NCBI GenBank assembly: GCA_902797885.1
Contig: CADBUP010000171.1
Location: 17,687 to 81,686, forward strand
Direction of reading: 5' to 3'
Source: an uncultured Ruminococcus sp.
GTDB lineage: Bacteria; Bacillota; Clostridia; Monoglobales; Monoglobaceae
Length of the DNA stretch: 64,000 bases
Shown here: positions 2,268 to 58,317 of the stretch, piece after piece
How positions within the stretch are numbered: the stretch's first letter is position 1
Layout of the letters: every line of letters begins with the position of its first letter
The notes under the pieces: generated by a model
Seen by the model: only the letters and a program-made list of their open reading frames with translations
Database searches by the model: none
What the model was told of the DNA's origin: nothing
Program-made: the position numbers and the translations under genes

Positions 2268-3175
2268 ATGATATACGTAACTGTAAAACAAAAAAGAAAT
2301 GACAAACAATTGAAATGGGAAGATTTTCTGTTTAACGAAGATCCTAAAATTCCAAAAATTCACTATGATGAAACCGGAACAATTACGCGAAAATTATTTG
2401 GCCCAAGCAAAGAGATGCTAAAGAGCGTAAATGTTCCGGGTATGATCGCTCTCTTGAAAGGATTTAACACGAAATATTCTTCTTTGTTTGAAAAGAACAA
2501 AGAAGAATTGTACGATCATTTCAAAATTCCAAAGAAAACAGGCGGGTTCAGGCCTATTGACGCGCCTAAGGACGAACTTCAAACAGCACTGAGAGAGCTT
2601 GTTTTTATTCTATCGGAAAAGTTTGGTCTTCTTTACCATACGGCCGCCTTTGCATATGTGAAGGGGCGCTGTATCACAGACGCGGTAAAGAAACACCAAA
2701 TCAATGAGAGCAATTGGATCCTGAAAACAGATTTCAGCGGCTTCTTTCCGTCCACTACATTGGATTTTGCCATGAGCATGATGTCTATGTTGTGGCCCGT
2801 AAGCGAGATATGCAAAACGAAGGCAGGCGAAGATGAATTAAGAAAAGCGCTAAGCCTTGGATTTCTTAACAATTCTTTGCCGCAAGGCACAGTTTTGTCT
2901 CCTATGCTTACAAATTTGATCATGATTCCCATAGATTACACATTATTCAACGAATTTGCTCATAGGAGATTCGTGTATACCAGATATGCGGATGACATTC
3001 ATATCAGCTGTGTTCAAAGCTTTGATATGGATGAAGTTGTTCAAATGATTAAAGAAGCGTTAGAAATCTTTCATGCGCCATACGAAATTAAGAAAGAAAA
3101 GACGCATTATGGATCCAGAAAAGGCAGAAATAAAATTCTTGGCCTGTCTTTGAATGCTGAAAATAACATAACGGT
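2268..3175 (+). CDS. reverse transcriptase, retron/Abi/DRT class, exon 1
   Basis: FRPIDAP; AAFAYVKGRCITDAVKKH...KTDFSGFFPS (retron-like NAxxH/FFxS region); LPQGTVLSPMLTNL; YTRYADDIHIS (YADD, nt 2984-2995); ILGLSLN (VTG-like region). The ORF runs into an intron. Confidence 0.8.
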
Positions 3176-4362
3176 TGGATAAAACGCTTGTCCCTTTAAA
3201 CTGAAAAGTTTATCGATAACATGGTGAACCTGTAAATGCAGGGTGTCTTAATTTATTAAGGCTAACGGGGAAATCTAAACAATATACATAACACTGAAAC
3301 TATGATATAATACCACCAAAGAAAGGTGGTGGCTTTATGCGCTATAAAGACTTGACTGGGCAAAGATTCTTTTGGTTAACAGTAATAAGAAAATTCGACG
3401 ATCCTAATAGTAAAGAAGTAAAGTGGTTGTGTAAATGTGATTGTGGAAACGAAGTCGTCGTAACTGCTGCAAATTTAAAATCTGGGAATACAAAATCATG
3501 TGGTTGTTATTACCGATCGGAAAGATTAAGAGCCAACATAATAGGCAAACAATTTGGTTTTTTGACAGCAATAAAAAGAATAAACTCCAAAGATGTTTTA
3601 TGCAAATGTTTGTGTGGAAATGAAATAGTTGTTTCATATTCAAATTTAACAAGCGGGAACACGAGATCGTGTGGATGTGCGCTTGTAAGATTTATATTGA
3701 ACGATAAATTAACAAACTTGACAGGAAGAATATTTGGAGAATTATTAGTAATTGCTAGATACGGTGATATGAAAGGTAATAGAAACCCAAAATGGCTTTG
3801 TCGTTGCTCTTGCGGAAGATATACTATAGTAGATGGAGAAAAACTAAAGAGTGGACACACGCAATCATGCGGTTGCATGAAAAACAGTTTGCCAGAATCT
3901 ATTATTGTTAATTATCTAAGATCGCACAACGTATCCTATGAAAAAGAATATAAATTCAAAGATTTAAGAAGTGAAAAAGGATATCCACTAAGATTTGATT
4001 TTAAAATTAATACAGAAAACAGTTTTTTCTTATTGGAGTATCAAGGACAACAACACTACTTAAATCACGACGACTTTGGAAAGCAGCAAAGAGAAGTTAC
4101 TGATAAGCAAAAGAAAGATTATTGTATGAAAAATAATATCGAATTAATTGAAATAAAATACGATGAAGAGATAGTTTCAGTTCTGGAAAAAATATTAATT
4201 GAACATTGTATATTGCATGACAATCCCGTGCCAAGCTCTGACCAAGAGAAGGTGTAACGACTATCCCGCGAGGGAGTAGCTTCTACGTGAAACTCGTAGT
4301 CGCGAAGCGCCATGCATCCTAATATGGATGATGATATAGTCTAGCTTTATGGAAACATAAAG
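3176..4362 (+). mobile_element. group I intron (family 1) interrupting the RT gene
   Basis: GGTGAACC (3223-3230), GCTAACGGGGAAATCTAAAC (3261-3280), CCCGTGCCAAG (4224-4234), GAAGGTGTAACGACTATCC (4248-4266) and GATATAGTC (4333-4341, P7 3' strand). The same blocks recur in five other loci. Boundaries are accurate to a few nt. Confidence 0.75.
3337..4257 (+). CDS. intron-encoded homing endonuclease: 3 tandem CxCxCG...SCGC zinc modules + Vsr/DUF559-like PD-(D/E)XK domain
   Basis: AAAGGTGGTG RBS. Three ~50-aa repeats (e.g. WLCKCDCGNEVVVTAANLKSGNTKSCGC). C-terminal LRFDF...LLEYQGQQHY...TDKQKKDYC...IELIEIKY. Confidence 0.75.
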   Translation: MRYKDLTGQRFFWLTVIRKFDDPNSKEVKWLCKCDCGNEVVVTAANLKSGNTKSCGCYYRSERLRANIIGKQFGFLTAIKRINSKDVLCKCLCGNEIVVSYSNLTSGNTRSCGCALVRFILNDKLTNLTGRIFGELLVIARYGDMKGNRNPKWLCRCSCGRYTIVDGEKLKSGHTQSCGCMKNSLPESIIVNYLRSHNVSYEKEYKFKDLRSEKGYPLRFDFKINTENSFFLLEYQGQQHYLNHDDFGKQQREVTDKQKKDYCMKNNIELIEIKYDEEIVSVLEKILIEHCILHDNPVPSSDQEKV

Positions 4363-4594
4363 ACCCACTGGGCGGGAAAAGAAGTACTGGAAAAGTGCCA
4401 CAAACAACCTGATCATGGACTATAAGAACGGCAAGATTTGGGATGTTGACGACATCCGACACTACGAAGGGTTGCTTTCGTATTACAAAATGGTTGAACC
4501 GGATTGTTTTGATCAGCTGGTGAAACACTATGAAGAGAAGTATCACGTTAGTTTAAAGAAGATCATCAAATATTCTTTGAATAACGGCTGGTAA
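4363..4594 (+). CDS. reverse transcriptase, exon 2 (inferred)
   Basis: Open frame from 4361 to TAA 4592-4594 (PTGREKKYW...LEGLLSYYKMVEPDCFDQLVKHY). Joining 3175|4363 keeps the frame (GT+A=Val), giving 379 aa in total. Confidence 0.55.
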
Positions 4595-4599
4595 AGAGC

Positions 4600-5130
4600 G
4601 ATGCCAACAGTTTAAGAAACTGGGATCTGGTGTAATCAAATCTATCTTTACATGAAGGTAAAAATTACTTCAGAGTCGTCATCATAAATGTTTTAAAGCT
4701 CCGTTTTAAAACATTTCTTCTGACGACTCTGAAGTAATTAATAGTAAAATAAATCCTTACCAAATAATTTAAGGATTTATTTAGATCGCTCCATGTGGAG
4801 TTTAGGGTCACTCCCTAAACTTCGCTACCTCTCCAGCTTTTAGCTGGTGTTATCTTCTCCTTTCGTCCGTCGGACTCGTCACCCGACGGACATTATCCTG
4901 AAATTTTAATCTGCGGTGGCGGAATAAACACAAGCGGAATTGAATAAATAAACTATGTTTATTTGATAATCCGCAGTGGACGCAATAACAACGCTCATGC
5001 GAAGCGAGTTGTGTCAGTAGACGCTTATCAGCCTAAGGCGAATAGTTTCAAACAGGTTTTGCGATAAAGGCATATAATTCCTGCTCACTATCAATGTCGC
5101 TATGTGTGGTGGAAATCCACACCCGCAGTA
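4600..5130 (+). ncRNA. candidate large structured RNA / multi-hairpin region (function unknown)
   Basis: About 530 nt with no credible ORF. Hairpin 4663-4739 has a 19-bp outer stem and a 12-bp inner stem. Further hairpins at 4747-4782, 4800-4820, 4834-4848 and 4865-4891, followed by the repeat module 4916-5123. Confidence 0.3.
5099..5123 (+). repeat. 25-nt exact repeat GCTATGTGTGGTGGAAATCCACACC, copy A (contains hairpin GTGTGG/CCACAC)
   Basis: Identical to 6256-6280. Lies about 20 nt upstream of the ATG at 5143. Confidence 0.9.
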
Positions 5131-5142
5131 AAGGAGAACTAT

Positions 5143-5954: not shown

Positions 5955-6025
5955 GCAGCCGTAATGTAATGGCAACATATTTGCCTTCCAAGCAAAATTT
6001 GCGGGTTCGAATCCCGTCGGCTGCT
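5955..6025 (+). tRNA. tRNA-Gly (anticodon UCC); CCA follows at 6026-6028
   Basis: Hand-folded cloverleaf: acceptor GCAGCCG/CGGCTGC, D stem ATGT/ACAT, anticodon stem TTTGC/GCAAA with loop CTTCCAA, T arm GCGGG-TTCGAAT-CCCGT. Confidence 0.85.
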
Positions 6026-6028
6026 CCA

Positions 6029-6667
6029 AGGGAAAACGTGCGCTAAAATCTTCAAAGTGACCCTGCAAACGGTAAAAGAAGATTGACTGATAGGAAAGAC
6101 TATCGTTTTGCTGTGGCGGAATAGACAACCATAATCAAACCAATGCGCTTGGATTGGGAAGTTGGCAAGCAAATTATACAAGTTGCTTGTAGTAGACGCT
6201 TAAAACGTAAGGCTTGTCGCCGGTAAGCCCTTTGTGGAGCCGTGGCCGCAGTACTGCTATGTGTGGTGGAAATCCACACCGGCAAAACAATAGACCTGCC
6301 AGCGCCTCTGCTTAGCACGCGTACCTTGGGGGCACCGCATAACCGAACGCGGTATATAAGATTATGTAACTACGGTTGTTAGTGTTACTGCGCAGAGATG
6401 AAAGCTAACGTAAAAATTCTCAGCGCGTTTAACTTTGGTAAGGGCCCCGCACGCTGAGACAAGTGACGCGAACCATGCTGGGACTTTTATATGGTCTTTT
6501 GATATCTTCGGATTGAGAAAGTATGAAAACGGACGTGTCCATAAAAAAAGAAAGCCCAAATTTAAAGCCTGTAATAATCCTAGGTATATTACCAGCTTCT
6601 CACAACAGTCCAGTTCATATCGGCTTTCGGATAACCAACCATTTCGGATTGCATTGTGAGAACTTAT
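6029..6667 (+). ncRNA. candidate large structured ncRNA between two tRNAs (ROOL/GOLLD-class is a hypothesis only)
   Basis: About 640 nt with only short mutually overlapping ORFs on both strands. Visibly more GC-rich than its surroundings. Hairpins at 6166-6189, 6209-6232, 6261-6279 and 6390-6427. Flanked directly by tRNA-Gly and tRNA-Pro. Confidence 0.3.
6256..6280 (+). repeat. 25-nt exact repeat GCTATGTGTGGTGGAAATCCACACC, copy B
   Basis: Identical to 5099-5123. Part of a larger shared module (6113-6280 versus 4916-5123). Confidence 0.9.
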
Positions 6668-6740
6668 CTGGGTGTAGCGCAGTTGGCAGCGTGCCTGATT
6701 TGGGATCAGGAGGCCGCCGGTTCAAATCCGGCCACTCAGA
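6668..6740 (+). tRNA. tRNA-Pro (anticodon UGG)
   Basis: Acceptor CTGGGTG/CACTCAG (one G-U), anticodon stem CCTGA/TCAGG with loop TTTGGGA, T arm GCCGG-TTCAAAT-CCGGC. Confidence 0.85.
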
Positions 6741-6766
6741 TTAACAAAAAAAGGAGACAGATATCT

Positions 6767-7255
6767 ATGCCGTTGGAAGATAAATATTATTACATTGTCA
6801 GAAAACTGATCGAAGAAAAGAAAACGATTTCCACTATGGAAAGCTGCACCGGCGGATTCATTGCCTCTATGATTACCGATATTCCAGCCGCTTCAGAAGT
6901 AATAAAAGGCGCATTTGTAACATACAGTAATGAAGCTAAAATCAAACAAGGTGTACCTGAATGGATAATTAAATCGCGTGGTGTGTACTCAAATGAAACA
7001 GCATATATGATGGCCTACGCTTGTGCAAGACAGTATAACTCAAACGTTGGAATTGGTATCACGGGATGCTTCGGTAGCATAGATCCGCAAAATAAAGACG
7101 GCGTTCCTGGCGTTGTGGATATCGCAATTGTAGACGGAATTTACTCTGATTCGTGGACAAAAACGTTCGGCCCGTTTGGTTCTCGGCATGATTATAAAAT
7201 TGCCGTAGCTGATTTCGTAGCAGATAAACTAATGGAAATCCTGGAGATCGCCTGA
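6767..7255 (+). CDS. pncC: CinA C-terminal-domain / nicotinamide-mononucleotide deamidase-like protein
   Basis: AAGGAG RBS. ISTMESCTGGFIASMITDIPAASEVIKGAFVTYSNEAK matches the ESCTGG...G.V.YSN signature of the CinA/PncC family. The upstream in-frame extension overlaps tRNA-Pro and is rejected. Confidence 0.7.
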   Translation: MPLEDKYYYIVRKLIEEKKTISTMESCTGGFIASMITDIPAASEVIKGAFVTYSNEAKIKQGVPEWIIKSRGVYSNETAYMMAYACARQYNSNVGIGITGCFGSIDPQNKDGVPGVVDIAIVDGIYSDSWTKTFGPFGSRHDYKIAVADFVADKLMEILEIA

Positions 7256-7270
7256 CGGTCTCCCCTATCT

Positions 7271-7343
7271 GCGCCTGTAGCCAAGAGGATAAGGCCGCGC
7301 TCTTCTAAAGCGCTATTCGCGGGTTCGATCCCTGCCAGGCGCG
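7271..7343 (+). tRNA. tRNA-Arg (anticodon UCU)
   Basis: Acceptor GCGCCTG/CAGGCGC, anticodon stem GCGCT/AGCGC with loop CTTCTAA, T arm GCGGG-TTCGATC-CCTGC. Confidence 0.85.
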
Positions 7344-7370
7344 TTTTATTTCGCTATAAGGAGAAGTATT

Positions 7371-11213: not shown

Positions 11214-11752
11214 ATGAGCGACAAATCATATCTTAAGAATCAAATCAGATTGGTATCCCTGAACGCGAACGATCTGTTTACAGATCAGGAACACGAAGTC
11301 TTCATGGATGTATGTGATCTTGTCCATGAACTGGAGAAAATGGACGCGGATGAAAACGCAGATCAGCTCCTGAAGAAAGAGTTAATAGCAAAGAGAAAAG
11401 AAAAATCTGCGCTGTTAACCGCCCTAATTAAGCAACATGCTGGCATTCCAAGAAAAGTAAGACTAAAGTCAGTCCTCATCCAGAATAAGGATCAGCCGCT
11501 CCCGACTGCAGCCACATGGAAGAATCTCAAATTCTCAAAGAAGATTTGTGAATTTGAGTCTGAAATGAGCCGTGCTATGGGGCTGCACCATCTAGACTAT
11601 ACGTTTGATAAAATTATCATTAAGTGGAAAAATATTGATCTCATGGAACAAATTGTTAAGGACGGATTCACTTTTGATATTTTAAAAGACGACGGCACTG
11701 TTGAAACGAAGAAGTTTCAGTACCTTACAAGTTCAGCTGGTCAAATTGGCCT
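11214..11752 (+). CDS. YonO-like single-subunit (two-barrel) RNA polymerase, exon 1
   Basis: AAGGAG RBS. The ORF ends inside intron landmarks. Part of a four-exon gene whose exons sum in frame to 959 aa. Confidence 0.6.
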
Positions 11753-12065
11753 GTAAGTCCCTTTCTGCCTCATCAGCAGGGTCACATACTTGTGGCTAAC
11801 GGAGAAAGCTAAACACATTCAATATCTAAATTACAACATTCTGTTATATGAAATCAGATATGACGAGAACGCGATTCGACGTCTTGATGAAATATTGAAT
11901 GTGCACGCTAATTCCGTGGGAACGGCTTCGGCTGAGCCTGTATCGACTATCTCCGCATCGGGAGAGTAAGGCTGTTATTGATACACAGTCTGAAATGGGC
12001 TTCTGCAAAATTTGCAGTAAGATATAGTCAGAGCCATATGAAAATATGGATAACTCGCAATTAAG
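11753..12065 (+). mobile_element. group I intron (family 1), endonuclease-less, with decayed HE remnant
   Basis: GCTAACGGAGAAAGCTAAAC, CGACTATCTCC, GATATAGTCA and GAAA-tetraloop hairpin CCATATGAAAATATGG. 11841-11918 translates LLYEIRYDENAIRRLDEILNVHANSV, the C-terminal tail of the family-1 endonuclease. Boundaries are approximate. Confidence 0.65.
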
Positions 12066-12171
12066 AACTTCTAAAATTTCATGTATATCAGAAGAAATGT
12101 GGCAGAAAATCCATGATCGTATCATGTGCGGTCTAACGTTTGAAAAGATCAACGCAAAAGGCGGGTGCAAT
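12066..12171 (+). CDS. YonO-like RNA polymerase, exon 2 (106-nt micro-exon, inferred)
   Basis: Open frame TSKISCISEEMWQKIHDRIMCGLTFEKINAKGGCN between two introns. The 3' end could instead be 12177. Confidence 0.45.
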
Positions 12172-12472
12172 GTGAATTGATTTTAGTTCCTTTGCGCAGT
12201 AATGTGCATAGCAAATGTGGTGAACCTACACATGTAGGGTGTCCAGACTGATGGGCTAACGGTAAAAATCTAAAACAAAAGCCCGTCGGTCTGGGCGCTT
12301 GTCATGACAATACCGTGCCAAGTCCAACCATGTCGGTTGGGAAGGTGTAGAGACTATTCCGTAAGGAAGTACACAGCCGGTGAAAATCCAGCGTGGAAGC
12401 GCCACACGACCTGTAAAGGCCGATGAGATAGTCCACTCCCTGTGAAATACTGCGAAAGCAGGGGTATAAAGG
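12172..12472 (+). mobile_element. group I intron (family 1), ORF-less
   Basis: GGTGAACCTACACATGTAGGGTGTCC, GCTAACGGTAAAAATCTAAAAC, CCGTGCCAAG, GAAGGTGTAGAGACTATTCC, GAGATAGTCC and CTGCGAAAGCAG tetraloop hairpin. About 300 nt. Confidence 0.7.
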
Positions 12473-13882
12473 AAACTGCTTGCCTATATTGCGTTGTCAA
12501 ATTCTGCCACTGATCCTTGGGACGACTTTGATATTGACCGTGTCATTGTTGTTCCAGACTGGGAAGCACCAGTAACTGGTGATATGCTGTACATAAAGCC
12601 AGATTACACAACAGAACGCGGTATCCGCACCGTTATGATCAAGCATACAGACGGTTGCGGAATGATGCTTCCTTCTGTATCTGACAAGAATTTTATGATT
12701 CGTGGACCGTTTGTTAAAGGATTACTCTCAGTGTTCGATTACATAAAATTTTGTAAAGAACATGGGGTTAAGCCAGAAATTGAAGATATTTACGGTGTTG
12801 TTCACGACTTGGAAAAAGAAAGAATTAATATCATTCTTTTTAAATCCATGTTTAAAATGAGCCACTACTTTGATTCCTGGAACTCGTACAAAGAATCCTT
12901 TAAGAAATACGGCTGCCACTTTGGGAAAACGAATTACGAAGAAGACTATTTGCCGGACAAGCAAATGAATTACCAGTTCACGCAAGCGGTGAATATGACT
13001 GATGAAGAAATCAGTAAATACACCGAGAAAGCACACAAGCGGCTGGAGAACCTCGCGAAGAATAAAACCTCCATGCTGCAAATGCTGAAAGCTTCTTCTA
13101 CTTCTCCTAATCCCTATTGTCGCGCTCTAATGATATATCCTGAATTGCTTAGAGATTACTACTCTCGTCAGCAATTGAAGGATATAAAGAAGAAAATGCT
13201 GTACGACGCAAAGTCCGGCGCAATCAAGTGCGAAAATAAGCGGTTGTTTGTCATCCCGGATTTATATGCTGCGTCAGAATACTATTTTCTTCATAAAGAG
13301 CGGCCTGACGGCCTTCTGAAAAATGGCGAAATCGCCTGCCGGCCGTACCGCACTCGCGGCAAAGCGGACGTCCTTCGCTCACCGTCGCTTTATATGGAAC
13401 ATAGTATAAATACTATTGTTGCTGATCCTAAAGTGTACGAATGGTTTACAACCGACGCAGTTGTGACCAGCTGCCATTCAATGATAAGTCGTATTCTGCA
13501 ATTCGATGTCGATGGAGATCAACTTAATGTGGTGGTTGATCCAGTAATTGTAAACGCAGCCGAAAGAAATCTGAAAGAACACGACATTGTCCCTTTGTTC
13601 TATGACGCGGCGAAAGCTAAAGATGAAATTGTCAATAAGGATTCAATATTCAACGGCCTGAAAAGAGCGCATGAATATTCAAATATTGGCGAGATCAGCA
13701 ATATGCTTACGTGTCTGTGGAATAGAAACAAGCCGGATATTGAAGCAGCTGCATTGCTTACTGCTCTCAATAATTGGCGCATAGATGGAGCAAAGACCGG
13801 ACTTGTTTATGAATACGCAAGTTATCCTCAAGTAACTAAACGTATAAATAAAGCTACAGGGGGATCTCACGCAAAGATGCCT
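12473..13882 (+). CDS. YonO-like RNA polymerase, exon 3 (catalytic DxDGD)
   Basis: ILQFDVDGDQLNVVVDP matches the Mg-binding NADFDGDQ motif of the multisubunit RNAP beta-prime barrel and of YonO/QDE-1-type enzymes. Confidence 0.7.
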
Positions 13883-15338
13883 TAACGAATAGGGCCGCAT
13901 ATTGGTAACAGTATGTGATAACGTGGTGAACCTGCAAACGCAGGGTGTCGCAGAAATGCGGCTAACGGGGAAAACTAAACGCAATTATTTTACTTAACTT
14001 TATACAGAAAGGTGGTGATAATATGAGCCATGCAAAATATTATAACGGAAAAACCATTAAAGAATGGTCTGCTGTTTGTGGGATCGAAGCAAAAACAATC
14101 AAAAACCGACTTAAAGAAGGTTGGTCTATTGACCATGCGATTTCTGTTCCGCTCGGTGAAAAGCGCGTTGCGACAATATCTCTATCAAAAATAGCTGCAG
14201 AAAATAAAATGTCGTTTAGTACATTGAAAAACAGGATCAACAAAGGAATGACAATTGAAGAAGCGATTAAATACGATCCGCGAAAAGATATGATAGGATA
14301 TAGATCAGGACGGCTTGTCGTAGAAAAAGAAATTGAACCAAAACGTGATCCATCTGGGAGACCAAGAAGACAGTTTTTATGTTTGTGCGATTGCGGAAAT
14401 GAAACAACAGCTCTTGCCGAAGTACTTATTTCTGGGAACAAGCGATCTTGCGGTTGTCTCGGAAAAGAAATAACATCTAAAAGACAAGAGAAAAATCTAA
14501 TTGGACAAACATTTGGAAGATGGTATATAGAAAGCGAAGCTTTTCGCGACAATCAAGGTATTCATTGGAACGCAGTGTGTTCTTGCGGAAATAAAGGCAC
14601 TCCAACAACAAGCAACTTATTAAAGGGAGTGAGCACGTCTTGTGGGTGTTACAATAAAGAACAAACCTCATTGCGTGAAAGAAAAGATTTAACAAATCAA
14701 AAGTTCTTTATGCTGACAGCGATTGAATACATTGGAATCGATGAATACAATAATTGTCTTTGGCGATGCAAATGCGATTGCGGAAATGAAATTGTGACGA
14801 CAGCCGGAAGATTGCTTGGAGGACAAATCATTTCATGTGGATGCCTTAGATCAAAATATGAACGTATGATTGAAGATGTTCTTATCTCGAAAAATATTTT
14901 CTTTAAAAAAGAAAAATATTTCAAAGATTTAAAACATATCAATTATTTGTTTTTTGATTTTTGCATCATAGATCATGATAACAACATTCATTTGATAGAA
15001 TATCAGGGCAAGCAGCACTATGTTGACTGTGGGGAATTTGGTAGATTGCAACGAGAGATAACAGATCAAATGAAAAAAGATTATTGTTCGAAAAACAATA
15101 TTCCATTATATGAAATTCGCTACGATAGCAATGTCGAAGATGAATTAAATAAGATAATTGCGCATGTCAATCCCGTGCTAAACTCTGAATTATCAGAGGA
15201 AGTGTAACGACTATCCCGTAAGGGAGTAACTACTACGTGAAATTCGTAGTTGTGAAGTGCCACGCAGACAAAGGATAGCTTTGCCTGAAGATATAGTCTA
15301 TTCCCCTAATAAATATCGGGAAACCGAGGGTACTATAG
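13883..15338 (+). mobile_element. group I intron (family 1) with homing-endonuclease ORF
   Basis: GGTGAACCTGCAAACGCAGGGTGTC, GCTAACGGGGAAAACTAAAC, GTGTAACGACTATCCC, GATATAGTCTA and TCGGGAAACCGA hairpin. Joining 13882|15339 is in phase 0. Confidence 0.75.
14023..15207 (+). CDS. intron-encoded homing endonuclease: 2 HTH-like repeats + 3 CxCxCG...SCGC modules + PD-(D/E)XK domain
   Basis: AAAGGTGGTG RBS. Contains LCLCDCGNE...SCGC, VCSCGNK...SCGC, WRCKCDCGNE...SCGC and FFDF...LIEYQGKQHY...IPLYEIRY. Confidence 0.75.
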   Translation: MSHAKYYNGKTIKEWSAVCGIEAKTIKNRLKEGWSIDHAISVPLGEKRVATISLSKIAAENKMSFSTLKNRINKGMTIEEAIKYDPRKDMIGYRSGRLVVEKEIEPKRDPSGRPRRQFLCLCDCGNETTALAEVLISGNKRSCGCLGKEITSKRQEKNLIGQTFGRWYIESEAFRDNQGIHWNAVCSCGNKGTPTTSNLLKGVSTSCGCYNKEQTSLRERKDLTNQKFFMLTAIEYIGIDEYNNCLWRCKCDCGNEIVTTAGRLLGGQIISCGCLRSKYERMIEDVLISKNIFFKKEKYFKDLKHINYLFFDFCIIDHDNNIHLIEYQGKQHYVDCGEFGRLQREITDQMKKDYCSKNNIPLYEIRYDSNVEDELNKIIAHVNPVLNSELSEEV

Positions 15339-16163
15339 TATTTCTTTCAATACAGTAAAAACGGCCGCTCATCAGGAAAGCCAAAGGAAAGCTACGCGAA
15401 GCCTACCAAATCAACCATGAACAGGATCTGTGCCGCATTCGATGATATCGGCAACATCAATCTGAATTTTGCAGGAGTGCCGCCGTTTAATTATCAGATG
15501 CTGCTTTCAGAGCCGTTCTATGACAAAAACACGGAACTAGTTCAAACATTCTGCGATTTAGACAGCATGTCTATCTCAACAGAAATAGCTCTGTCTGAAA
15601 TTCCGCCGCATGAAAGAAACTCTACTGGAATGTATGAAATTTTGGCAGACGTCATCAAAGAAACGCTAACGGAGCAATTTGGATCTATGGAATATTGTTA
15701 TCCAATACTCGTAAAAGCGCTTTTTGCTGGCGATAATTGGAAAAAAGCCTCGCATAAAAAGATGTTCTGGCGAATCTTTGGTGAAATTGCACTGCAAAAC
15801 ATAGAAAATAATCTTAAAGACCATACAGTGTGTCCTGATTGCGATGCAAAAATTCCCAAATGGGCCAAAGATCATACATGCCCAAAGAACACTTTAGGCT
15901 TCTACGTGTGCGAAGATTGCGGAAAGCAATGTGTCAGAATTAACTCAAGGCAGGTGCGATGTGAAGAATGCCAAAAAGCGCACAGGGAGGAATCCAACAA
16001 ACTTGCGCATACGAAAATGCGAGAACGTAAAAAGGTGTGTGAGAAACGGTGTATTTCTTTCTTGCGATCACGCTCGATGGCAACGTCAGAGACGGAACCT
16101 TCTGGCCAGCCTATGTTCTTTGTAAATCATGGACAACAAGCGAAAAGCGATCAGGATGGATAA
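15339..16163 (+). CDS. YonO-like RNA polymerase, exon 4 (C-terminal Zn-ribbon region)
   Basis: In-frame TAG at 15336-15338 marks the upstream limit of the open frame. CPDCDAK...CPKN...CEDCGKQC...CEECQ cysteine pairs. Confidence 0.6.
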   Translation, partial: YFFQYSKNGRSSGKPKESYAKPTKSTMNRICAAFDDIGNINLNFAGVPPFNYQMLLSEPFYDKNTELVQTFCDLDSMSISTEIALSEIPPHERNSTGMYEILADVIKETLTEQFGSMEYCYPILVKALFAGDNWKKASHKKMFWRIFGEIALQNIENNLKDHTVCPDCDAKIPKWAKDHTCPKNTLGFYVCEDCGKQCVRINSRQVRCEECQKAHREESNKLAHTKMRERKKVCEKRCISFLRSRSMATSETEPSGQPMFFVNHGQQAKSDQDG

Positions 16164-16240
16164 TCGTCCATTATCAAGACGGAATTCCTGTTCGAGCTCT
16201 ACCTAAAGTAATTGTAACAGAGATTATCGGTCACGAGGAA

Positions 16241-16603
16241 ATGATTCAATTTATGAGTTCGTATCAGAAAGTTGATTCTAAAACTCATAAACATTTTCAT
16301 CCCCATGGGGCGCTGTGCTGGTATGAGTGCAATCAGTACGGCGACCCCACGGGGGTCGTTTATTTCATTAAACGAGTGCCTGAATGGAGAATGATTTACA
16401 ATTTCTCAGAACGCGGCTGGCAGCAGTTAAAGAAAACATTAGCACGTAAGCCAGAATGGAACGAGCTGTTAAATTCAGACGTCCAGTTGGAACGGATGAA
16501 GTTTACAGATACAAAGATGCTGCTGCATCAAAATTCACACGAAAAAGATTTAAGAGAATTTAGGGGGTTAAGAGATGCCGGAAGAGAAGATGAACAGAAC
16601 TGA
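16241..16603 (+). CDS. hypothetical protein (start uncertain; frame open from 16049)
   Basis: The ORF overlaps the RNAP 3' end. First ATG after the RNAP stop is at 16241, with GAGGA immediately upstream. Confidence 0.4.
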   Translation: MIQFMSSYQKVDSKTHKHFHPHGALCWYECNQYGDPTGVVYFIKRVPEWRMIYNFSERGWQQLKKTLARKPEWNELLNSDVQLERMKFTDTKMLLHQNSHEKDLREFRGLRDAGREDEQN

Positions 16604-18191: not shown

Positions 18192-19801
18192 ATGGATAGT
18201 ATTGCTTCTGCGGTTATTGAATTGGCTAATAAGCACTTTGGAGAATATCGTATCAGGAATGGACAAGTGGTTCCTAAGTATTGTCCGTTCTGCCACGGCG
18301 GACAAAATGGAGATAAGGAAACATTTTCTGTTGGTATGTATAATGGAGCTTTTTCATGTATGCGCGGAAACTGTACTGGCATTTCTGGCGACGGCAAAGG
18401 AACAGAAGGCTCTTTCCAACAGCTATCTAATTATTTCGGAGAATCTGGATTTCAATTTTCCAGTTTGCCGAAAACAATTGGTCTTTCCAAGAAAAAGACT
18501 TATGAACTTCCTGATCCAAACGAACTTCAGCCGCTGACAGACGACATTGTTAATTACATGGGAACTCGTAGCATCTCTCGTCAAACCTTGGATGATTGGG
18601 AAATCGCTTCTGATAAAGACGGGAATATTGTGTTTCCGTTTTACCGGAACGAGAAACTTATTTATGTGAAATATCGCAAGCCTAAGAAGCACACAAAAGA
18701 AGACGGTCCCAAAGAGTGGGCAAAATCCAACACGGAACCGATCCTCTTTGGTATGGATATGGTTTCCTTTAATAAGCCGCTGTGCATCACTGAAGGTGAA
18801 ATTGATTGCCTGTCGCTGTACGAAGCTGGAATTTCCAACGTAGTGTCTGTACCTTCCGGCTGTAACAATATGGAATGGGTCACACTTTGTTGGGATTGGC
18901 TGGAAAACTTTCAACAGATTATTCTGTTTGGAGATTCCGATGAGCCTGGAATGGAAATGTCTTCCACGCTTATGAAGCGACTGGGTGAAGATCGCTGCAT
19001 GATCCCCAAGGAATATCCTGAATGTGTTTATAATGGGCATAATTACAATAGAATCTGTAAGGATGCTAACGAAATTCTGTGCTGTTATGGCCCTGACAAT
19101 TTAAAGACGTTGGTAGAAGCTTGCGAACCTGCGCCGATTAAAGGCGTTCTTCAGGTTTCACAAATTCCATACGTAGATCCAAGAAGCGTTCCAAGAATTA
19201 TGACAGGAATACATACTCTTGATAACATGATTGGTGGGTTCGGAGAATGCGGAATCACGGTAATAAGTGGCATGCGTGGCGAGGGTAAAAGTACGATTAG
19301 TTCTCGCTTTCTTCTTGAGGCAATCGAACAAAATTATAAGTGCTGTGCTTATAGCGCTGAACTTCCTAAAAATCAATTTCTTGATTGGACATTTCTTCCT
19401 GCGACTGAAAGTAAATATGTTACCTATGTAACAGATCCAAGAAACGGAAAAAGAATTCCTCAGGTTCCATTGGAAATCCAGAAAAGAATAAGGAACTGGC
19501 TTGGAGATAGACTGTGGTTGTTTGATAATGGGGCAATTTTTGATGATGATCAACAAACTGCAGTTTTAAAAGTATTTGAAATGTGCGCAAGAAGATATGG
19601 TTGCAAACTTTTCCTGGTAGATAACCTCATGATGCTTCTTACGACTGGAGAAGAAGAAAATGCAGCACAAGGTAGATTTATGGCAAAGCTTAAAGCATTT
19701 GCAAACAAATATAAAGTACATGTTCTTTGTGTGTGCCATCCACGAAAGAAGCCAGCTAACGCTACTTTCTCCAACGATGATGTAGCGGGAAATTCAGTGA
19801 T
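18192..19801 (+). CDS. bifunctional DNA primase-helicase, exon 1
   Basis: Zn finger CPFCHGG...CMRGNC. TOPRIM ITEGEIDCLS...LFGDSDEPG. Walker A GMRGEGKST. Walker B LFLVDNLM. Confidence 0.8.
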
Positions 19802-21063
19802 TAAATTTAGTCACCTCGGCAAGTAATTGTTGAGAAAAATGTGGTGAACCTATACATATAGGGTGTTCCATTTTTGGAGCTAACGGTAAAAATCTAAGTG
19901 ATGTGTTTAAATATATAATGAAAAGGAGGTGAAAGAATGAAACGAGCAGACTTAACTGGACAGACATTCGGGTGGTTAACCGTAGACCATTTTGAAAAAA
20001 TAATAACAGTTGGAAAAAATACAAAAAGAACTTTGTGGTCCTGTACATGTAAGTGCGGAAACACTGCATTTGCAACAACACAGGATTTAAGACAAGGTAA
20101 AGTGGTCTCATGCGGTTGCAAAAAAGCATATAACGCTAAAGATAGAATTATAGACGAAACAGGTAAAATTCATGGATTTCTTCGAGTGAAAGAAAAAGCC
20201 GGATCAGACGAGAATAGAAGAGTTTTATATCGTTGTGAATGTTTGTTGTGTGGAAAAGAGACTATTGTTTCAGGAAAGGCCTTACGTAGAGGCACAACTA
20301 AATCTTGTGGTTGTTTAAAAGTTGAAAATCGAAAGACTTTAGGAAAGAGAACCTTTAAGGATTTAACAGGCAAAACAATAGGGTATCTCTATGTCGAAAG
20401 CAGAGCAGAAAATAAATATTCTCAAGCAGGAAATCAATCAACAATGTGGAATTGCAAATGCCTCCTTTGTGGCGGGAAAACCGTTGTTGCTGGTACTGCA
20501 TTGTGGAATGGTCATACAAGATCTTGTGGATGTCTTCATATGTCATACGCAGAAAAAGACATAAACGATGAATTAATTAAGCTTAAAATTAATTTTTATC
20601 ACGATTATTCTTTCGACGATTTAATCAGCCCTTATTCAACCATGCCTTTACGTTTTGATTTTGCTCTTTTAGATGATTGGGGTTTAGTATTAGCTCTTTT
20701 AGAATATCAAGGAATTCAACACTTTCAAAAATTCAAAGATGGCTTTGGAGATATGCAAAGAGAAATCACAGATCCCATAAAAAAGGAGTATTGTAGAAAC
20801 AATAGCATTCCATTATATGAAATTCGATACAATGAAGAAATTATTCCGGCTCTACATAAAATTCTTTCAATGGTATATAACACATCATATGACAATACCG
20901 TGCCAAGCGAGCAGGAAACTGCTTGAAGGTGTAACGACTATTCCGTAAGGAAGTAGTTTGCAGGCGAAAATCCTGCTTACGAAGTGCCACACTCCTATTC
21001 TCAATAGGATGAAGAGATAGTCTACTCCCCTTGTTAAATATCGGGAAACCGAGGGTATTAAGG
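19802..21063 (+). mobile_element. group I intron (family 1) with homing-endonuclease ORF
   Basis: GGTGAACCTATACATATAGGGTGTTCC, GCTAACGGTAAAAATCTAAG, GGTGTAACGACTATTCC, GAGATAGTCTA and TCGGGAAACCGA. Joining 19801|21064 gives AT+A=Ile and ...AGNSVI|TNIATTVFSLEK. Confidence 0.75.
19937..20926 (+). CDS. intron-encoded homing endonuclease: 3 CxCxCG...SCGC modules + PD-(D/E)XK domain
   Basis: AAGGAGGTG RBS. Contains WSCTCKCGN...SCGC, YRCECLLCGK...SCGC, WNCKCLLCGG...SCGC and LRFDF...LLEYQGIQHF...IPLYEIRY. Confidence 0.75.
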   Translation: MKRADLTGQTFGWLTVDHFEKIITVGKNTKRTLWSCTCKCGNTAFATTQDLRQGKVVSCGCKKAYNAKDRIIDETGKIHGFLRVKEKAGSDENRRVLYRCECLLCGKETIVSGKALRRGTTKSCGCLKVENRKTLGKRTFKDLTGKTIGYLYVESRAENKYSQAGNQSTMWNCKCLLCGGKTVVAGTALWNGHTRSCGCLHMSYAEKDINDELIKLKINFYHDYSFDDLISPYSTMPLRFDFALLDDWGLVLALLEYQGIQHFQKFKDGFGDMQREITDPIKKEYCRNNSIPLYEIRYNEEIIPALHKILSMVYNTSYDNTVPSEQETA

Positions 21064-21313
21064 AACAAATATCGCAACTACAGTATTCAGCTTGGAAAAA
21101 CCTTCAATTCGTGTAACTAAGAATCGAGATTATGGTGAAACAGGCTTTATTCCATGCGACTACGATCCTGTGAATCATAGAATCTTTGAAACTAAATTTG
21201 GTGATAGGGCTGTTTATGGGTGGGATCATACTGGAATTGAAATTCCTGAAGATCAGGCTTGCGCTCTGCCAGAATTTCAGCTTCAATCCAACCGTCAGGA
21301 TCAGCCGTTCTAA
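21064..21313 (+). CDS. primase-helicase, exon 2
   Basis: The frame opens just after the intron 3' hairpin. IRVTKNRDYGETG is the DnaB/gp4-type motif H4 (KNR..G). Confidence 0.65.
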
Positions 21314-24511: not shown

Positions 24512-26230
24512 TTGCTTGAGTACGAGGGGTATCACATTCACACTTGTTACAGTAATGCCCTAACTCAGCCGGATTCTACTGTGTTCATCAAGGATTACGC
24601 GAAAGCTTACCGAGAACGCGGGCATAAGGTATTGTGCATCTCAGAGCATGGAAATCGATCCAATGTGTGGGAGCAATTCGATATATGCGAAGCGTATAAG
24701 AACGATAAAGACAGTCCTTATGTAATGACGCCGATTGCGGCGGCTGAAGCATATTTTGTTCCAGACAGGCTAAAAGAAGTTGACGGAAAGAAAGACGGCA
24801 GAAACTTTCATTTGATTCTTGTAGCGAAAGACATGGAAGGTTTCTACGAATTAAACGAAGCGTTGTCGGAAGCCAATCTGACAGGTTTCTACAGTAAAGC
24901 CAGAGTGGATTTCGATATTCTGTCTAAGCTGGATTATAAACATTTTATATGCACAACCGCATGTGTAAGTGGCATATTAAAGGATGAAAGCTGCGAGCAG
25001 CTGGCTTGTCAGTTACATGAAATATTTAGAGAGAATTTCTATCTGGAAGTACAGCATCATCCACAAAGAATCCAGGCTGAAACAAATATCAAGGCTCTTC
25101 GGTTATATAAGAAATATAATTGGCCGCTGATCTACGGAACAGACAGTCACTATATTAACAAGGAAGACAAAATTCTGAGAACGGAGTTAATGAAGTCTGC
25201 AAATATAACATATGGCGATGAAGATTCGTTCGATCTTCATTTACCAACGGCGGCTGAAGCGTTCAAACTATTCCAAACTCAGGGCGTGCTGTCTAAAGCT
25301 CAGATCGAAGAAGCTATGGAAAACACTCTAATTTTGAGAGATTTTGAAGGCATACACTTTACAAAAGAAAAGAAGATTCCAAATTCTTATCCAGGAGTAC
25401 CAATAGAAAAAAGAAATTATCTATACAAGAAAACAGTTTGCGACGAATATATTAAGAAGGCAGGTATGCCAAATAAAGAAGAAGCAGCTGAGATTCATGC
25501 GGAAATGGACACGATAGCCGATACAGGTACGGCTGATTATTTCCTTATCATGAAGCGAATCATTGATAAGGGAATTGAATATGGTGGAGTATTAACTACA
25601 ACCGGTCGTGGATCAGGCGCATCGTTCGCAACTAACTACGCTATGGGATTTTCATCGATAAATAGATTACACTGCGCTGTAAAAATGTATCCTGAGCGTT
25701 TTATATCAGCTGATCGTTTGGCTAATGGGCTTCCAGATCTGGATTGCAACATGGCAAATGTATCTGCTTTCGAAAAGGCTGGAAAAGAAATATTAGGCGA
25801 ATATGGATGCCTTCCGATGATTGCGTTTGGAACCGTAAAAACACTATCAGCATTTAAATTGTTGGCCAGGGCCAGAGATTTGGACTTTGACACATCCAAC
25901 GCTGTGTCAAAACAAATTCAGAATTACGAACAAGACGTAAAATACGCCAAAGAAAACAACAGCGATGATCCTGATTATGATGTTGACGATGAAGTGCAAA
26001 TTGAGAATTATATTGACGATCAATACATAAAACTTGTTGAAGATTCAAAGCAGTATAAAGGAATTATAATAAGCACTTCTCCGCATCCCTGCGCTCATCT
26101 TTTATTAGATAAGGATATTCGAAGAGAGATTGGCGTTATTCGTGTCAAATCAAAATCTGGAAACAAGGACGCTGTATATGCCGCATTTATTGACGGAAAG
26201 ACGGCAGATAACTACAACTACTTAAAAGCT
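24512..26230 (+). CDS. DNA polymerase III alpha (DnaE)-like replicative polymerase, exon 1 (PHP + palm)
   Basis: N-terminal PHP signature YHIHTCYSN...ISEHGN. The ORF runs into intron landmarks. Confidence 0.75.
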
Positions 26231-27655
26231 AGATATTTGGCCTTTTCTATGGTAACATAGAATTGAAACATGGTGAACATATAAATATATGGTGTTGGGA
26301 TAAAACCCAGCTAACGGCAGAAAGCTAAATGCGAATAGATCAACAACGAAGAAAGAAGGTGAATAAATGCCAGCGAAAAAGAATTTAATTGGCCAAACAT
26401 TTGGGTGGTTAACTGTAATTAAAGAAGCTGAACCACTTATCTTGGCGAGCGGAAAATCAAGAACACAATGTGTTTGTTTGTGCAAATGTGGAAAGGAAAC
26501 AATCGTATCCTCTCAGTCCCTTATACAAGGCACAACAATTTCTTGTGGCTGTTTTGGTGCTATCGCAAGAACAGAAGGAAAAAGAAAAGCCGTGGAAAAC
26601 AAAATGCTCGATAAGCATTTTGGTCGCTGGCACGTTGACAGTTACGCTGGACAAAAATATTTACCTTCTGGTCAAACTCGTAGCTTATGGAATTGTACAT
26701 GTGAATGCGGAACACGCAGAACATTAACTACAAATCAATTAAATGAAGGAAGTTTAAGCTGTGGATGTTTACGTAGCGAACTCGCATCTGCTAGAGAAAC
26801 AATAAATTTAATTGGTATGCGTTTCGATTCTTTAGTGGTGTTAGAAAGAATTGGTTCAAAACATTATGGAAAACAAAAATTATCCATGCCACTATGGAAA
26901 TGCAAATGCGACTGCGGAAAAGAATGCATTGCAACATCTAGAGCTTTAATTGAAGGCAGAAAAAAATCATGTGGATGTCAACGCAGATTAAACTTAGAAG
27001 GTTTACGATTTGGATTGCTTGTAGTTATAAAATACGATGAAACAAAGAAAAAATGGCTTTGTAAATGCGACTGTGGAAACCTTACATATAAAGCTGCAGG
27101 GCATCTTCGAGCTGGCAGTGCAATTAGTTGCGGTTGTCAAGCAATGTCAAAAAATGAGATAATCATAAATGACTATCTCATGAATAAAGGAGTTAAATTT
27201 GCAAATCAATATTCTTTTAAAAAACTAAAAGGGCCTAATGGCGGGCAATTGAGATTTGACTTTGCAATTTTGAATGAAGATAATTTTCCAGTCGCGTTAA
27301 TAGAGTATCAAGGGCAGCAACATTTCGAAGAAATAGAAGGATACGAATATTTCGGAAAAACGGCTCGCGATATAACGGATTTCATTAAAAGGTTGTTCTG
27401 CGATCAAACACATATAGATCTATACACAATAAGCTACAATCAAAACGTAATTGAAGAATGCGATAAAATTCTTTCACAAATAAAATTCGCACATGCCAAT
27501 GCCGTGCCAAGCTCGAAAGAGAAGGTGTAACGACTATCCCATAAGGGAGTAGAACTCAGTGAAACTCTGCGTTCGAAGCGCCATGCAACCGGTTTTACGG
27601 TTGAAGAAATAGTCTAAACCCCTAATAAATATCGGGAAACCGAGGGTATTCATTG
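26231..27655 (+). mobile_element. group I intron (family 1) with homing-endonuclease ORF
   Basis: GGTGAACATATAAATATATGGTGTTGGG, GCTAACGGCAGAAAGCTAAATG, GGTGTAACGACTATCCC, AAATAGTCTA and TCGGGAAACCGA. Joining 26230|27656 gives ...YNYLKA|DFLRVDVV, matching the DnaE LKxDFLGL box. The two exons total 1161 aa. Confidence 0.75.
26367..27530 (+). CDS. intron-encoded homing endonuclease: 4 CxCxCG...SCGC modules + PD-(D/E)XK domain
   Basis: GAAGGTG RBS. Four repeats (CVCLCKCGKE, WNCTCECGTR, WKCKCDCGKE, WLCKCDCGNL, each ending SCGC). LRFDF...LIEYQGQQHF. Confidence 0.75.
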   Translation: MPAKKNLIGQTFGWLTVIKEAEPLILASGKSRTQCVCLCKCGKETIVSSQSLIQGTTISCGCFGAIARTEGKRKAVENKMLDKHFGRWHVDSYAGQKYLPSGQTRSLWNCTCECGTRRTLTTNQLNEGSLSCGCLRSELASARETINLIGMRFDSLVVLERIGSKHYGKQKLSMPLWKCKCDCGKECIATSRALIEGRKKSCGCQRRLNLEGLRFGLLVVIKYDETKKKWLCKCDCGNLTYKAAGHLRAGSAISCGCQAMSKNEIIINDYLMNKGVKFANQYSFKKLKGPNGGQLRFDFAILNEDNFPVALIEYQGQQHFEEIEGYEYFGKTARDITDFIKRLFCDQTHIDLYTISYNQNVIEECDKILSQIKFAHANAVPSSKEKV

Positions 27656-57000: not shown

Positions 57001-57042
57001 AGAAAATCTCTCCTTTTGTCAAAATTAGTTATAACTAAAGAT

Positions 57043-57067
57043 AGGGAACCGATTTTCTCGGTTCCCT
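57043..57067 (-). terminator. hairpin terminator candidate
   Basis: AGGGAACCG-ATTTTCT-CGGTTCCCT immediately downstream of the stop at 57084. Confidence 0.5.
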
Positions 57068-57083
57068 AAAATGACAAGCGTTA

Positions 57084-57466
57084 TTAGGCGGCGTTGCAGC
57101 CACAGCCAGCGCCAAAGTTCTGAGCGCAGCAGTGTGGGTTCTGCACAATGTAAGCAGGCCGAGCAACAGGAGCCAGATACTGTTCAAGAGCGGTGGTCTG
57201 AGCTTCGTTGTTCGCCAGAATCTGAGCAGTTTGAGCGCCCTGAGAAGCAGCAAACCGCAGAGCCTGATTATCGCTGCGAGCCTGATCCAGAGCGTTCTGC
57301 ATACCAGCAATGCGATTCTCATAGTTCTGCTTAATTCCATCCAATTCCAGCTGACAAAGTTTGTCCATGATCTTCTGATTGCCATCGGAAATAGCCAGAC
57401 GAGTGGCGGCACCATCCTGAGCAATATTAGTATTCACGCCTTGAGTCGCCAGACGGTTTTCGCAAC
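57084..57466 (-). CDS. Gly/Trp/Asn-rich, Cys-tailed late protein, exon 2 (inferred)
   Basis: The frame is open upstream of the annotated GTG back to 57487. Ends ...NPHCCAQNFGAGCGCNAA. Confidence 0.5.
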
Positions 57467-57962
57467 CAATTGTGTTATCGTGAAGGCTCTTTATCCTTCA
57501 CTTCTTATAGTTTCCTATAAGTTCGGACTATATCTTCACCCATCGCATTATTGCGATTAGGGGTCGGGCACTTGTATTAGGATTATTGATTACCGTTCTC
57601 ACCTATTAGTCTCTGAACCTTCCGAGATACTATTATCGGTATTCTCTCGGCTTGGCTGCTGATTACCATATTCACATATATAATTTTGATCATATGGCTT
57701 ATCTCTTAAATATCAAGATTTTATCTGAATTAATGTCCAATTCTCTCGCTGCAAATTCTTTACTGAGATATAATTTTTATTAGTGTCTATTTTGTACCAT
57801 TCATATACGTAATACATTATTATCTCCTATTTGTTTCATGCGAACTTAGGCTTCCAGCAATTCACCCGATTGCCAGTGCGGATTACGCCGCACAAGTGCC
57901 ATTGGCGAAAATAGTTTTCGTATTGAAGAAACGCTTGGTTGAATTACGAATCTTCGTTAAGC
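57467..57962 (-). mobile_element. group I intron (family 2, Tetrahymena/IC-like P7 landmarks) with decayed GIY-YIG remnant
   Basis: The minus strand has GGTTCAGAGACTAATAGG (57602-57619) and GAAGATATAGTCCGAAC (57521-57537), which are P7 5'/3' landmarks. GAAA-tetraloop hairpin CTTATAGGAAACTATAAG (57503-57520). Joining 57963|57466 gives T+GT=Cys, in frame. Confidence 0.6.
57713..57817 (-). pseudogene. 34-aa remnant of a GIY-YIG homing endonuclease inside the intron
   Basis: AGGAG RBS. MYYVYEWYKIDTNKNYISVKNLQRENW... parallels I-TevI GIYQIKNTLNNKVYVGSAKDFEKRW (recalled from memory), then terminates. Confidence 0.4.
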
Positions 57963-58317
57963 ACTGTTGGAAAGCATTCTGCATCTGGAAATACTGATTC
58001 ATATCAGCCATCTGTCGATTGCTGGCAGCAGCTTCAGCCTGAGCAAAACCATTAGTCAAAGTGTTCTGAATGCCCTGAATACCAGTCATTACAGAATTCT
58101 GATCGAAGCCGCGCTGAACTTCGGAATAACCGTTGTATCCACCAAATCCATTGTTGCCGCCCCAACCGTTGTTTCCGCCCCAGCCGAACATAGCCATCCA
58201 TACCAGCAAGAACCACATCCAGCCGCCGCCAAACATACCATCGTTTGCGCCGTTGCCATAATAGTTCCCCATAGGAGCTACAGGCATGTACATATTAGGT
58301 CCATTTTCGCTCATCAT
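57963..58317 (-). CDS. Gly/Trp/Asn-rich late protein, exon 1
   Basis: AAAGGTGG RBS. GNYYGNGANDGMFGGGWMWFLLVWMAMFGWGGNNGWGGNNGFGGYNGY. Confidence 0.55.

Follow-up and report, generated by a model that had tools for sequence, protein, structure and literature searches.

Seven predicted group I introns of two lineages in five genes of an SPbeta-like phage

The locus and its interrupted genes

The stretch of 64,000 nucleotides (nt) examined here, below called the window (positions 17,687 to 81,686 of contig CADBUP010000171.1), has the gene content of an SPbeta-like phage, with genes for a YonO-type RNA polymerase (RNAP), DnaE, a Toprim/DnaB primase-helicase and a retron-type reverse transcriptase (RT), and with a minus-strand block of tail-fibre and endolysin genes. 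From the sequence, five of these genes very probably carry seven group I introns that would remove themselves after transcription, four of them together with genes for predicted homing endonucleases (Table 1). The introns are named I1, I2a, I2b, I3, I4 and I5 on the plus strand and I7 on the minus strand. An earlier sequence-only reading of the window had placed the six plus-strand elements in the RT, RNAP (three times), primase-helicase and DnaE genes and a seventh, different one in a late gene on the minus strand, and these assignments proved right. The window is part of a 147-kb metagenomic contig of a phage that resembles SPbeta in its YonO-type RNAP and DnaE; one intron-encoded protein has an identical copy on a metagenome contig of 147,132 nt (ENA ERZ27280489 k141_110894).

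The RT contains an RVT_1 domain and reaches 159 bits with the NCBIfam model of the retron St85 RT, below the cut-off of 235 bits. DnaE shows the PHP, pol III alpha and finger domains, and the interrupted minus-strand gene encodes a protein of phrog_16490 (function unassigned) in the tail-fibre/endolysin region. With the introns taken out, the predicted products measure 960 amino acids (aa) for the RNAP, 1161 aa for DnaE, 619 aa for the primase-helicase, 378 aa for the RT and 246 aa for the tail-region protein, and none of them contains an internal stop codon. The four RNAP exons keep their frames open and their conserved motifs intact, including the DxDGD catalytic loop, and the micro-exon among them is colinear with the homologues YonO, Perkons and D-1873 (RTKK...GG.N.N). 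As gene callers break each core transcription or replication enzyme here into two to four fragments, exact junctions repair the annotation.

The final ~50 residues of the RNAP (window 15990-16603) extend beyond all homologues and overlap an open reading frame (ORF) at 16049-16603 that lies in another frame. A ThiF-like gene is located upstream of the RT gene and a CinA-like gene about 2 kb downstream, and the YonO-type RNAP gene of several related phages has an RT homologue (42-55% identity) about 1 kb upstream.

Table 1. Introns, exons, predicted endonuclease genes and tRNA genes in the window (position 1 is its first letter)
Feature	Position	Strand	Remarks
Intron I1	3181-4370	+	1190 nt; RT gene; with endonuclease gene
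Intron I2a	11742-12057	+	316 nt; YonO-type RNAP gene; endonuclease remnant
Intron I2b	12178-12472	+	295 nt; RNAP gene; ORF-less
Intron I3	13883-15338	+	1456 nt; RNAP gene; with endonuclease gene
Intron I4	19802-21063	+	1262 nt; primase-helicase gene; with endonuclease gene
Intron I5	26231-27655	+	1425 nt; dnaE; with endonuclease gene
Intron I7	57467-57959	-	493 nt; different group I lineage; tail/lysis-region gene
RT exons	2268-3180, 4371-4594	+	
RNAP exon 1	11214-11741	+	
RNAP exon 2	12058-12177	+	120-nt (40-codon) micro-exon flanked by two introns
RNAP exon 3	12473-13882	+	
RNAP exon 4	15339-16163	+	
Primase-helicase exons	18192-19801, 21064-21313	+	
dnaE exons	24512-26230, 27656-29422	+	
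Late-gene exons	58317-57960, 57466-57084	-	tail/lysis region
I1 endonuclease gene	3337-4257	+	306 aa; in P5 loop; 3' end runs through P4', P6 and J6/7
I3 endonuclease gene	14023-15207	+	394 aa
I4 endonuclease gene	19937-20926	+	329 aa
I5 endonuclease gene	26367-27530	+	387 aa
tRNA genes	5955-7344		three: Gly-TCC, Pro-TGG, Arg-TCT

Splice junctions

The junctions were determined by loosely joining the flanking ORFs, comparing them by tblastn with phage genomes and aligning them residue by residue. In all interrupted genes the joined exons align to intron-less genes as single uninterrupted pieces. The best intron-less matches are SPbeta YonO, Perkons and D-1873 for the RNAP, Perkons, Thrax5 and others for DnaE, gut phage scaffolds and phiFN37 for the primase-helicase, MT835544 for the RT, and Ceridwen and gut scaffolds for the late gene, for which more than 100 uninterrupted homologues at 54-89% identity were found. 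All seven junctions lie inside a conserved motif and show no insertion or deletion with respect to the intron-less homologues, which bears out the claim of the sequence-only reading that a frame-preserving junction restores a conserved box in every case. Each of the seven introns has U at position -1 and G as its last base, and three of the seven junctions interrupt a codon. The 5' splice sites precede, by up to ~30 nt, the stop codons that close the upstream ORFs, and the ends of the ORFs are therefore not the exact junctions.

For I1, the junction (marked here by a caret) is ...GGA T^GG CGG..., giving ITVG-W-REKKYW where MT835544 has ITVGWRNLK. The I2a junction SSAG^QLRTSK, matching SSAGQIRTKK in the homologues, is the sole local option that combines U at -1 with G at the last intron base. 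I2b is removed at GGCNVN^KLLAYIALSNSA (GGCNVN^KLLAY) and I3 at HAKMP^YFFQYSK, both without gaps against the homologous motifs GG.S/N.N-K..AY.ALSNSA and K.K.P.FF.Y.K, respectively. The I4 junction, GTG AT^A ACA, yields GNSV-I-TNIATTVFSL, equal in length to the G.S.I-.NLA motif of the homologues, and the I5 junction NYLKA^DFLRVDVV aligns gap-free with KYLKN^DYL.VTVW. In the late gene, joining at TGC T^GT TGC produces AFQQCCCENRLAT (AFQQC-C-CENRLAT), corresponding to AFQSCCCENRLAT in homologues, and uninterrupted homologues at 63-89% identity read AFQ(S/N)CCCENRLAT. Another 3' splice site for I7, after CCUUCACG (QQC-Y-NTIG), was dropped, as close homologues put the site 13 nt further downstream.

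Ribozyme structure and covariance models

The sequence-only reading had noted common ribozyme blocks at the six plus-strand loci, and these are present where it placed them and well above chance level. Motif GGTGTAACGACTATCC matches five times in the window against 0.18 expected and motif GCTAACGGnnAAAnCTAAA five times against 0.8 expected, and motif CCGTGCCAAG has four exact matches. Profiles of the 5' and 3' modules, searched with nhmmer, detect exactly six plus-strand copies (E 1e-44 to 7e-12); the 3' profile also matches the minus-strand element weakly (E 1e-3), and there are no further matches in the window. I2a is more diverged than the other copies, as it is without GGTGAACC and its R box reads CCTGTATCGACTATCT.

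Structures were derived with RNAalifold, pair counting and direct checks. All six plus-strand introns can be folded in the order P1, P2, P3, two extra hairpins, J3/4 (UAA), P4, P5, P4', P6, J6/7, P7, P7.1, P7.2, P3', P8, P7' and P9, with a P2 capped by GAAA or GUAA, a P9 with a GAAA loop and, in the copies that bear one, the endonuclease ORF housed in the P5 loop. In the 3' module both sides have changed in 18 of 32 pairs, and 90.9% of the alignment cells are paired, compared with 33-42% when the partners are slid; in the 5' module both sides have changed in 13 of 17 pairs and 93.8% of the cells are paired. In part the structures come from the very alignments that served for these covariation counts, a circularity that is answered by the slid controls and by relatives from outside the window. 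P4 covaries across four variants, and all 13 of the family members compared form a P3 of 7 bp, in seven sequence variants. P7 is invariant in the window, and its GACUAU/AUAGUC becomes GACCAU/AUGGUC, a compensatory change from U-A to C-G, in the related locus L042 and in phage phi3T. Core helices P3 to P9, the P3/P7 pseudoknot and a P4-P6 domain are thus present with covariation, as expected of group I introns.

With respect to subgroup, P7.1 and P7.2 separate P7 from P3', as in IA2 introns, and covary; the 3' profile matches the core of a T4-type td intron (E 2e-8). However, P3 does not directly adjoin J3/4 and P4, the arrangement seen in td and Twort; two covarying hairpins of together ~40 nt separate P3 from J3/4 in the 13 members examined, I2a included. 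Since P3.1 counts among the optional elements of group I introns (PMC3873408), I regard the two extra hairpins as a variant that does not exclude the family from IA2. The six plus-strand introns are one family with an IA2-like core and extra hairpins at the optional P3.1 position. A different P3, formed from GGGUGU after the second hairpin, was considered and dropped, since only the upstream strand covaries with P3'.

Each of the seven introns allows a P1 with a U.G pair; it is convincing for I1, I2b, I3, I4 and I7, and bulged in I5. In I1, P1 is GGAU/GUCC with the U.G at the splice site, P3 is CAUGGUG/CGCCAUG and P4 is ACGGGG/UCCCGU. I2b has P1 GAAU/GUUC and P3 UGUGGUG/CGCCACA, I3 has P1 GCCU/GGGC with U.G at the splice site and an adjoining P10 GAAUA/UAUUU, I4 has P1 GUGAU/GUCAC with U.G, and I7 has P1 AGUGCU/GGCACU, again with U.G at the splice site. 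The P10 of I2a, AAUUG/CAAUU, immediately adjoins the guide-sequence strand of P1 on its 5' side.

For the covariance scan, I used a model, R1, built from nine family members in other phages and none from the window, with filters off and over both strands of the 64 kb. The six plus-strand loci are found with E 5e-22 to 1e-4, at 99.5 bits for I1, 98.4 for I4, 89.2 for I5, 88.4 for I3, 77 for I2b and 28.8 for I2a (E 1e-4). I7 reaches 23.5 bits (E 2.5e-3) with R1, and besides the seven introns nothing in the 64 kb scored below E 0.9. With the Rfam group I model RF00028, I7 gives 71 bits (E 5e-16) against a gathering score of 50, and it is a separate, Rfam-typical group I lineage. The earlier count of seven group I introns in two lineages is thus supported.

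Homing endonucleases

The four endonuclease ORFs each have a Shine-Dalgarno sequence of their own and share 34-40% identity with one another. Each traverses P4', P6 and J6/7 and ends at the TAA of GGUGUAACGACU; in I1 the stop codon is the TAA within GGTGTAACGACT. The I1 protein matches PHROGs 374, 559, 7140 and 9084 (HNH, intron-encoded or homing endonucleases; E 1e-48 to 1e-21), and the other endonucleases of the window also match PHROGs with such annotations. No Pfam family was found for the endonucleases, and the protein family to which they belong has thousands of metagenome members. Three to four Cys-rich repeats (W.C.C.CG...SCGC) are followed by a C-terminal domain with conserved D221, E234, H240, D256 and K259 (numbered as in the I1 protein), in the pattern D...E.QG..H...D..K. 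The repeat modules presumably bind DNA and the C-terminal domain would be the nuclease.

An AlphaFold2 model of the I1 endonuclease has a pLDDT of 87.8. Foldseek returned weak matches for its C-terminal domain (E 0.008-0.1), and the nucleases among them are of the PD-(D/E)XK type: Bax1, the R2 restriction-like endonuclease and McrC. A PDB search by single sequence and by family profile found no relative, 3R3P and Vsr included. I file these proteins as predicted homing endonucleases of the PD-(D/E)XK superfamily. In Bastillevirinae, proteins of PHROG 559 have a VSR-fold (CATH) signature (PMC11878797), but the link that this provides to the EDxHD/Vsr family is indirect and membership of that family unproven.

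The remnant in I2a comprises ~50 C-terminal codons, which align to the four endonucleases with E ~1e-4 and to their profile with E 0.0017, and I2b retains only the 7 endonuclease codons that overlap the ribozyme core. These two introns would have lost their endonuclease gene. No free-standing endonuclease copies were found in the window. When a phage with the introns and a relative without them infect the same cell, the endonucleases would cut the intron-less alleles at the conserved motifs, and repair would copy the intron in (homing).

In the I3 endonuclease the Cys-rich repeats are preceded by a further N-terminal stretch of ~90 aa (window 14023-14290), absent from the other three, which matches PHROGs 1065 and 3377 and contains two similar helix-turn-helix-like segments (…TIKNRLKEGWSI… and …TLKNRINKGMTI…). 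The P5 loop of I7 is extended by an AT-rich insertion of ~170 nt that includes an ORF of 34 codons, MYYVYEWYKIDTNKNY... (window 57713-57817, minus strand). This ORF could be what is left of a homing endonuclease, but it has no PHROG match and tblastn against the family endonucleases gave noise, and a GIY-YIG origin is unsupported. A general sequestration of the endonuclease ribosome-binding site in a hairpin was likewise dropped, since a modest hairpin occurs only in I1 (z -2.0) and not in I3, I4 and I5.

Alternative explanations

Several observations weigh against seven self-splicing introns with homing endonucleases. With RF00028 the best scores of the plus-strand introns are 24.4 (I2b, with E 6e-4 in a local scan), 23.2, 21.8 and 17.7 bits (I2a), none of which reaches 50, and no match was reported for I1 and I4. 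P10 is unconvincing for I1, I4 and I5. The P1 of I2a is weak, with 3 bp, a mismatch and then 1 bp, and because of this weak P1 and the diverged core, I2a may splice itself poorly and depend on a helper. Self-splicing of all seven introns is deduced from their sequences, and the catalytic family of the endonucleases is not pinned down, given the lack of a PDB profile match and the weak fold matches.

As a control, a T4-type td intron (L098:1275-1505, Escherichia phage Pu-Krd-SF4) was scored with RF00028 and gave 42.5 bits, likewise below 50. The T4 td intron is a proven self-splicer. Because this control is also sub-threshold, the failure of RF00028 is a weakness of the model with ORF-bearing IA2 introns, for which its threshold is not decisive, and not of the introns. 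Its sub-threshold matches at four of the six loci, like the match of the 3' profile to the td core, point to similarity with proven introns. The sequence-only reading had named failure to score with covariance models as a ground for refutation, and this formally applies by half: the scan came out in its favour for I7 with the Rfam model and for the other six with R1, but not for those six with RF00028. As the gathering threshold misses both the six-member family and td of T4, Rfam-based surveys under-count phage introns.

Some of the introns, especially I2a or the ORF-less I2b, might instead be decayed elements that no longer splice, and the RNAP gene, or the contig as a whole, would then represent a degenerating prophage or a defective genome. 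The low R1 score of I2a compared with the other plus-strand copies (77-99 bits), its weak P1 and its mere remnant of an endonuclease gene fit such decay. However, P3, P4, P7, P8 and P9 are all still paired in I2a, a P10 of 5 bp exactly adjoins its P1, and the four RNAP exons have kept open frames and conserved motifs down to the DxDGD loop. Moreover, group I introns normally pass through a stage in which the endonuclease gene is lost and the ribozyme is kept, and I consider this explanation improbable.

That the genes are truly split by free-standing endonuclease insertions, their fragments being translated separately and assembling as subunits without RNA splicing, is very improbable indeed: although gene callers annotate the fragments as separate ORFs and in every intron the 5' exon frame runs into a stop codon no more than ~30 nt from the splice site, I2a and I2b have a full ribozyme core without an endonuclease gene, downstream fragments such as RNAP exon 2 are without a start codon or ribosome-binding site at the homology boundary, the primase-helicase and late-gene junctions fall within codons, and split genes cannot account for covarying RNA helices.

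As self-splicing introns, which I consider the seven elements very probably to be, each would fold after transcription and excise itself by two-step guanosine-initiated transesterification, joining the exons as defined by the homologues.

Distribution among related phages

Compared with GenBank phages by megablast and blastn, the window gives only matches of 35-60 nt, all of them in the intron core; the ~54-nt fragments found by megablast are the 3' cores of group I introns in Listeria, Enterococcus, Staphylococcus and Bacillus phages. The window introns are therefore without a close described relative.

Among 80 IMG/VR loci with a YonO-type RNAP, the gene is uninterrupted in 76, and the remaining four carry one intron of the family each, at aa ~520 (two loci), 561 and ~655. 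The sites in the window are at aa 176, 216 and 686, none of which is used in the 80 loci. A similar picture is found in clade relatives, defined by 45-62% protein identity and by RT, RNAP and primase-helicase genes in one locus. Six of them (L018, L020, L021, L024, L026, L030) have an unbroken RT gene, and in one this gene contains a family intron at aa ~213; four (L018, L020, L024, L026) have an unbroken primase-helicase gene, whereas in four others that gene is split at aa 360, 365 or 477. These relatives carry zero to two introns where the window phage has five. In the window and 14 related loci together, 12 or more different conserved sites in the RT, YonO-type RNAP, primase-helicase and DnaE genes contain a member of the family. 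Occasional ectopic moves would explain how one family comes to lie at differing sites in related phages.

In Bacillus phage phi3T (KY030782; L004:4864-5263), yonO is split at aa 625/626 by a 400-nt ORF-less intron of the plus-strand family, with E 6e-21 for the 3' profile and a P3 of GUCAGUG/CGCUGAC. The gene is annotated as two coding sequences, as are 'yonO_1/yonO_2' of Goe11 and Goe14, and the intron is not mentioned in one preprint on SPbeta relatives. I rejected the idea that it occupies the I3 site, as the alignment puts it ~30 codons upstream of the I3 equivalent, at the site used in locus L028. This un-annotated intron offers an experimental handle in a laboratory phage.

More tentatively, and with doubts that exceed my confidence by some way, I suggest that the family, defined by its P3.1/P3.2 hairpins and by an endonuclease that is encoded in P5 and combines Cys-rich repeats with a PD-(D/E)XK-like domain, may be in an active ectopic burst through the transcription and replication genes of a clade of SPbeta-like gut phages, with six copies accumulated in the window phage, and that the endonucleases would act as weapons against relatives. 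If this were true, each diverged endonuclease would cut essential genes of co-infecting relatives, and the window could show whether intron endonucleases mediate competition between phages. Such a role in competition between co-infecting relatives has been described for gp210 of PhiPA3, an intron endonuclease in an RNAP gene (PMC11620839). Both phages thus have a group I intron with a homing endonuclease in an RNAP gene, but the type of RNAP, the endonuclease family and the host are all different. Apart from the burst, one ribozyme family at many sites, with its endonuclease full, reduced to a remnant or absent and with intron-less alleles at hand, provides a natural series for the spread of introns to new sites.

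Comparison with known introns and intron load

The plus-strand family shares with T4 td and other phage IA2 introns (Twort, SPO1/Bastille types) the core CUAACGGGG...AAUCCCGUGCYAA (P4/P6), GUAACGACUAUCCC (J6/7-P7-P7.1), P7.2 and GAUAUAGUC (P7'), a GNRA-capped P2, an endonuclease ORF in a peripheral loop and, as host, a phage gene whose protein serves DNA or nucleotide metabolism; the 3' core of td itself was identified by an exact match. In td, however, P3 stands directly before J3/4, where the window family has its two covarying hairpins, and the ORF of the window family lies in P5 and not in P6 and encodes an endonuclease that is not of the GIY-YIG type. An ORF that interrupts P5 is also found in the recA intron of Bacillus phage 0305phi8-36, which encodes I-Bth0305I (PMC3239194), likewise with N-terminal DNA-binding modules and a C-terminal nuclease of the restriction-endonuclease-like superfamily. 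In contrast to I-Bth0305I, the N-terminus of the window endonucleases consists of Cys-rich repeats instead of NUMOD2 helix-turn-helix motifs, the Vsr-like 'EDxHD' pattern is not recognisable in them, and 3R3P and Vsr were absent from the 50 best Foldseek matches of the C-terminal domain.

The sequence-only reading had called the intron load unusual even for SPbeta- or T4-type phages. With seven introns in 64 kb, or one per 9 kb, this stands for phages of those types: T4 has three introns (PMC1865063). In Bastillevirinae, 45 introns were found in 37 genes with a maximum of six per genome, and one genus has 6 introns in 2 genes in the single genome analysed (PMC11878797). The load is not unprecedented in gut phages, however, since as many as 14 introns, together with 3 inteins, occur in the 145-192 kb genomes of crAss-like Zeta phages (PMC7886860), and Jug phages, with genomes of 360-402 kb, have a mean of 18.5 group I introns each (PMC12880540). 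As in the window, the core replication or structural genes of these metagenomic crAss-like Zeta/Delta and Jug phages are broken by many group I introns, several of which can occur in one gene. Those are phages of Bacteroidota, whereas the window phage is related to SPbeta-like Firmicutes phages, and its interrupted genes include those of a YonO-type single-subunit-like RNAP and a retron-type RT. Seven introns in 64 kb are at the top of the published density range, yet the phenomenon is the same as in other gut phages, and the window is a third example of very high intron density in such phages, this one from a Firmicutes phage. The window thus adds members to a kind already described in gut phages, with a modest structural variant of the ribozyme.

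Other features of the window

Outside the interrupted genes, the region 31317-32144 (827 nt) contains no ORF of at least 80 aa and no Rfam hit. The listed CinA-like ORF at 6656-7255 overlaps the tRNA-Pro gene at its 5' end, and its real start should therefore lie further downstream than 6656.

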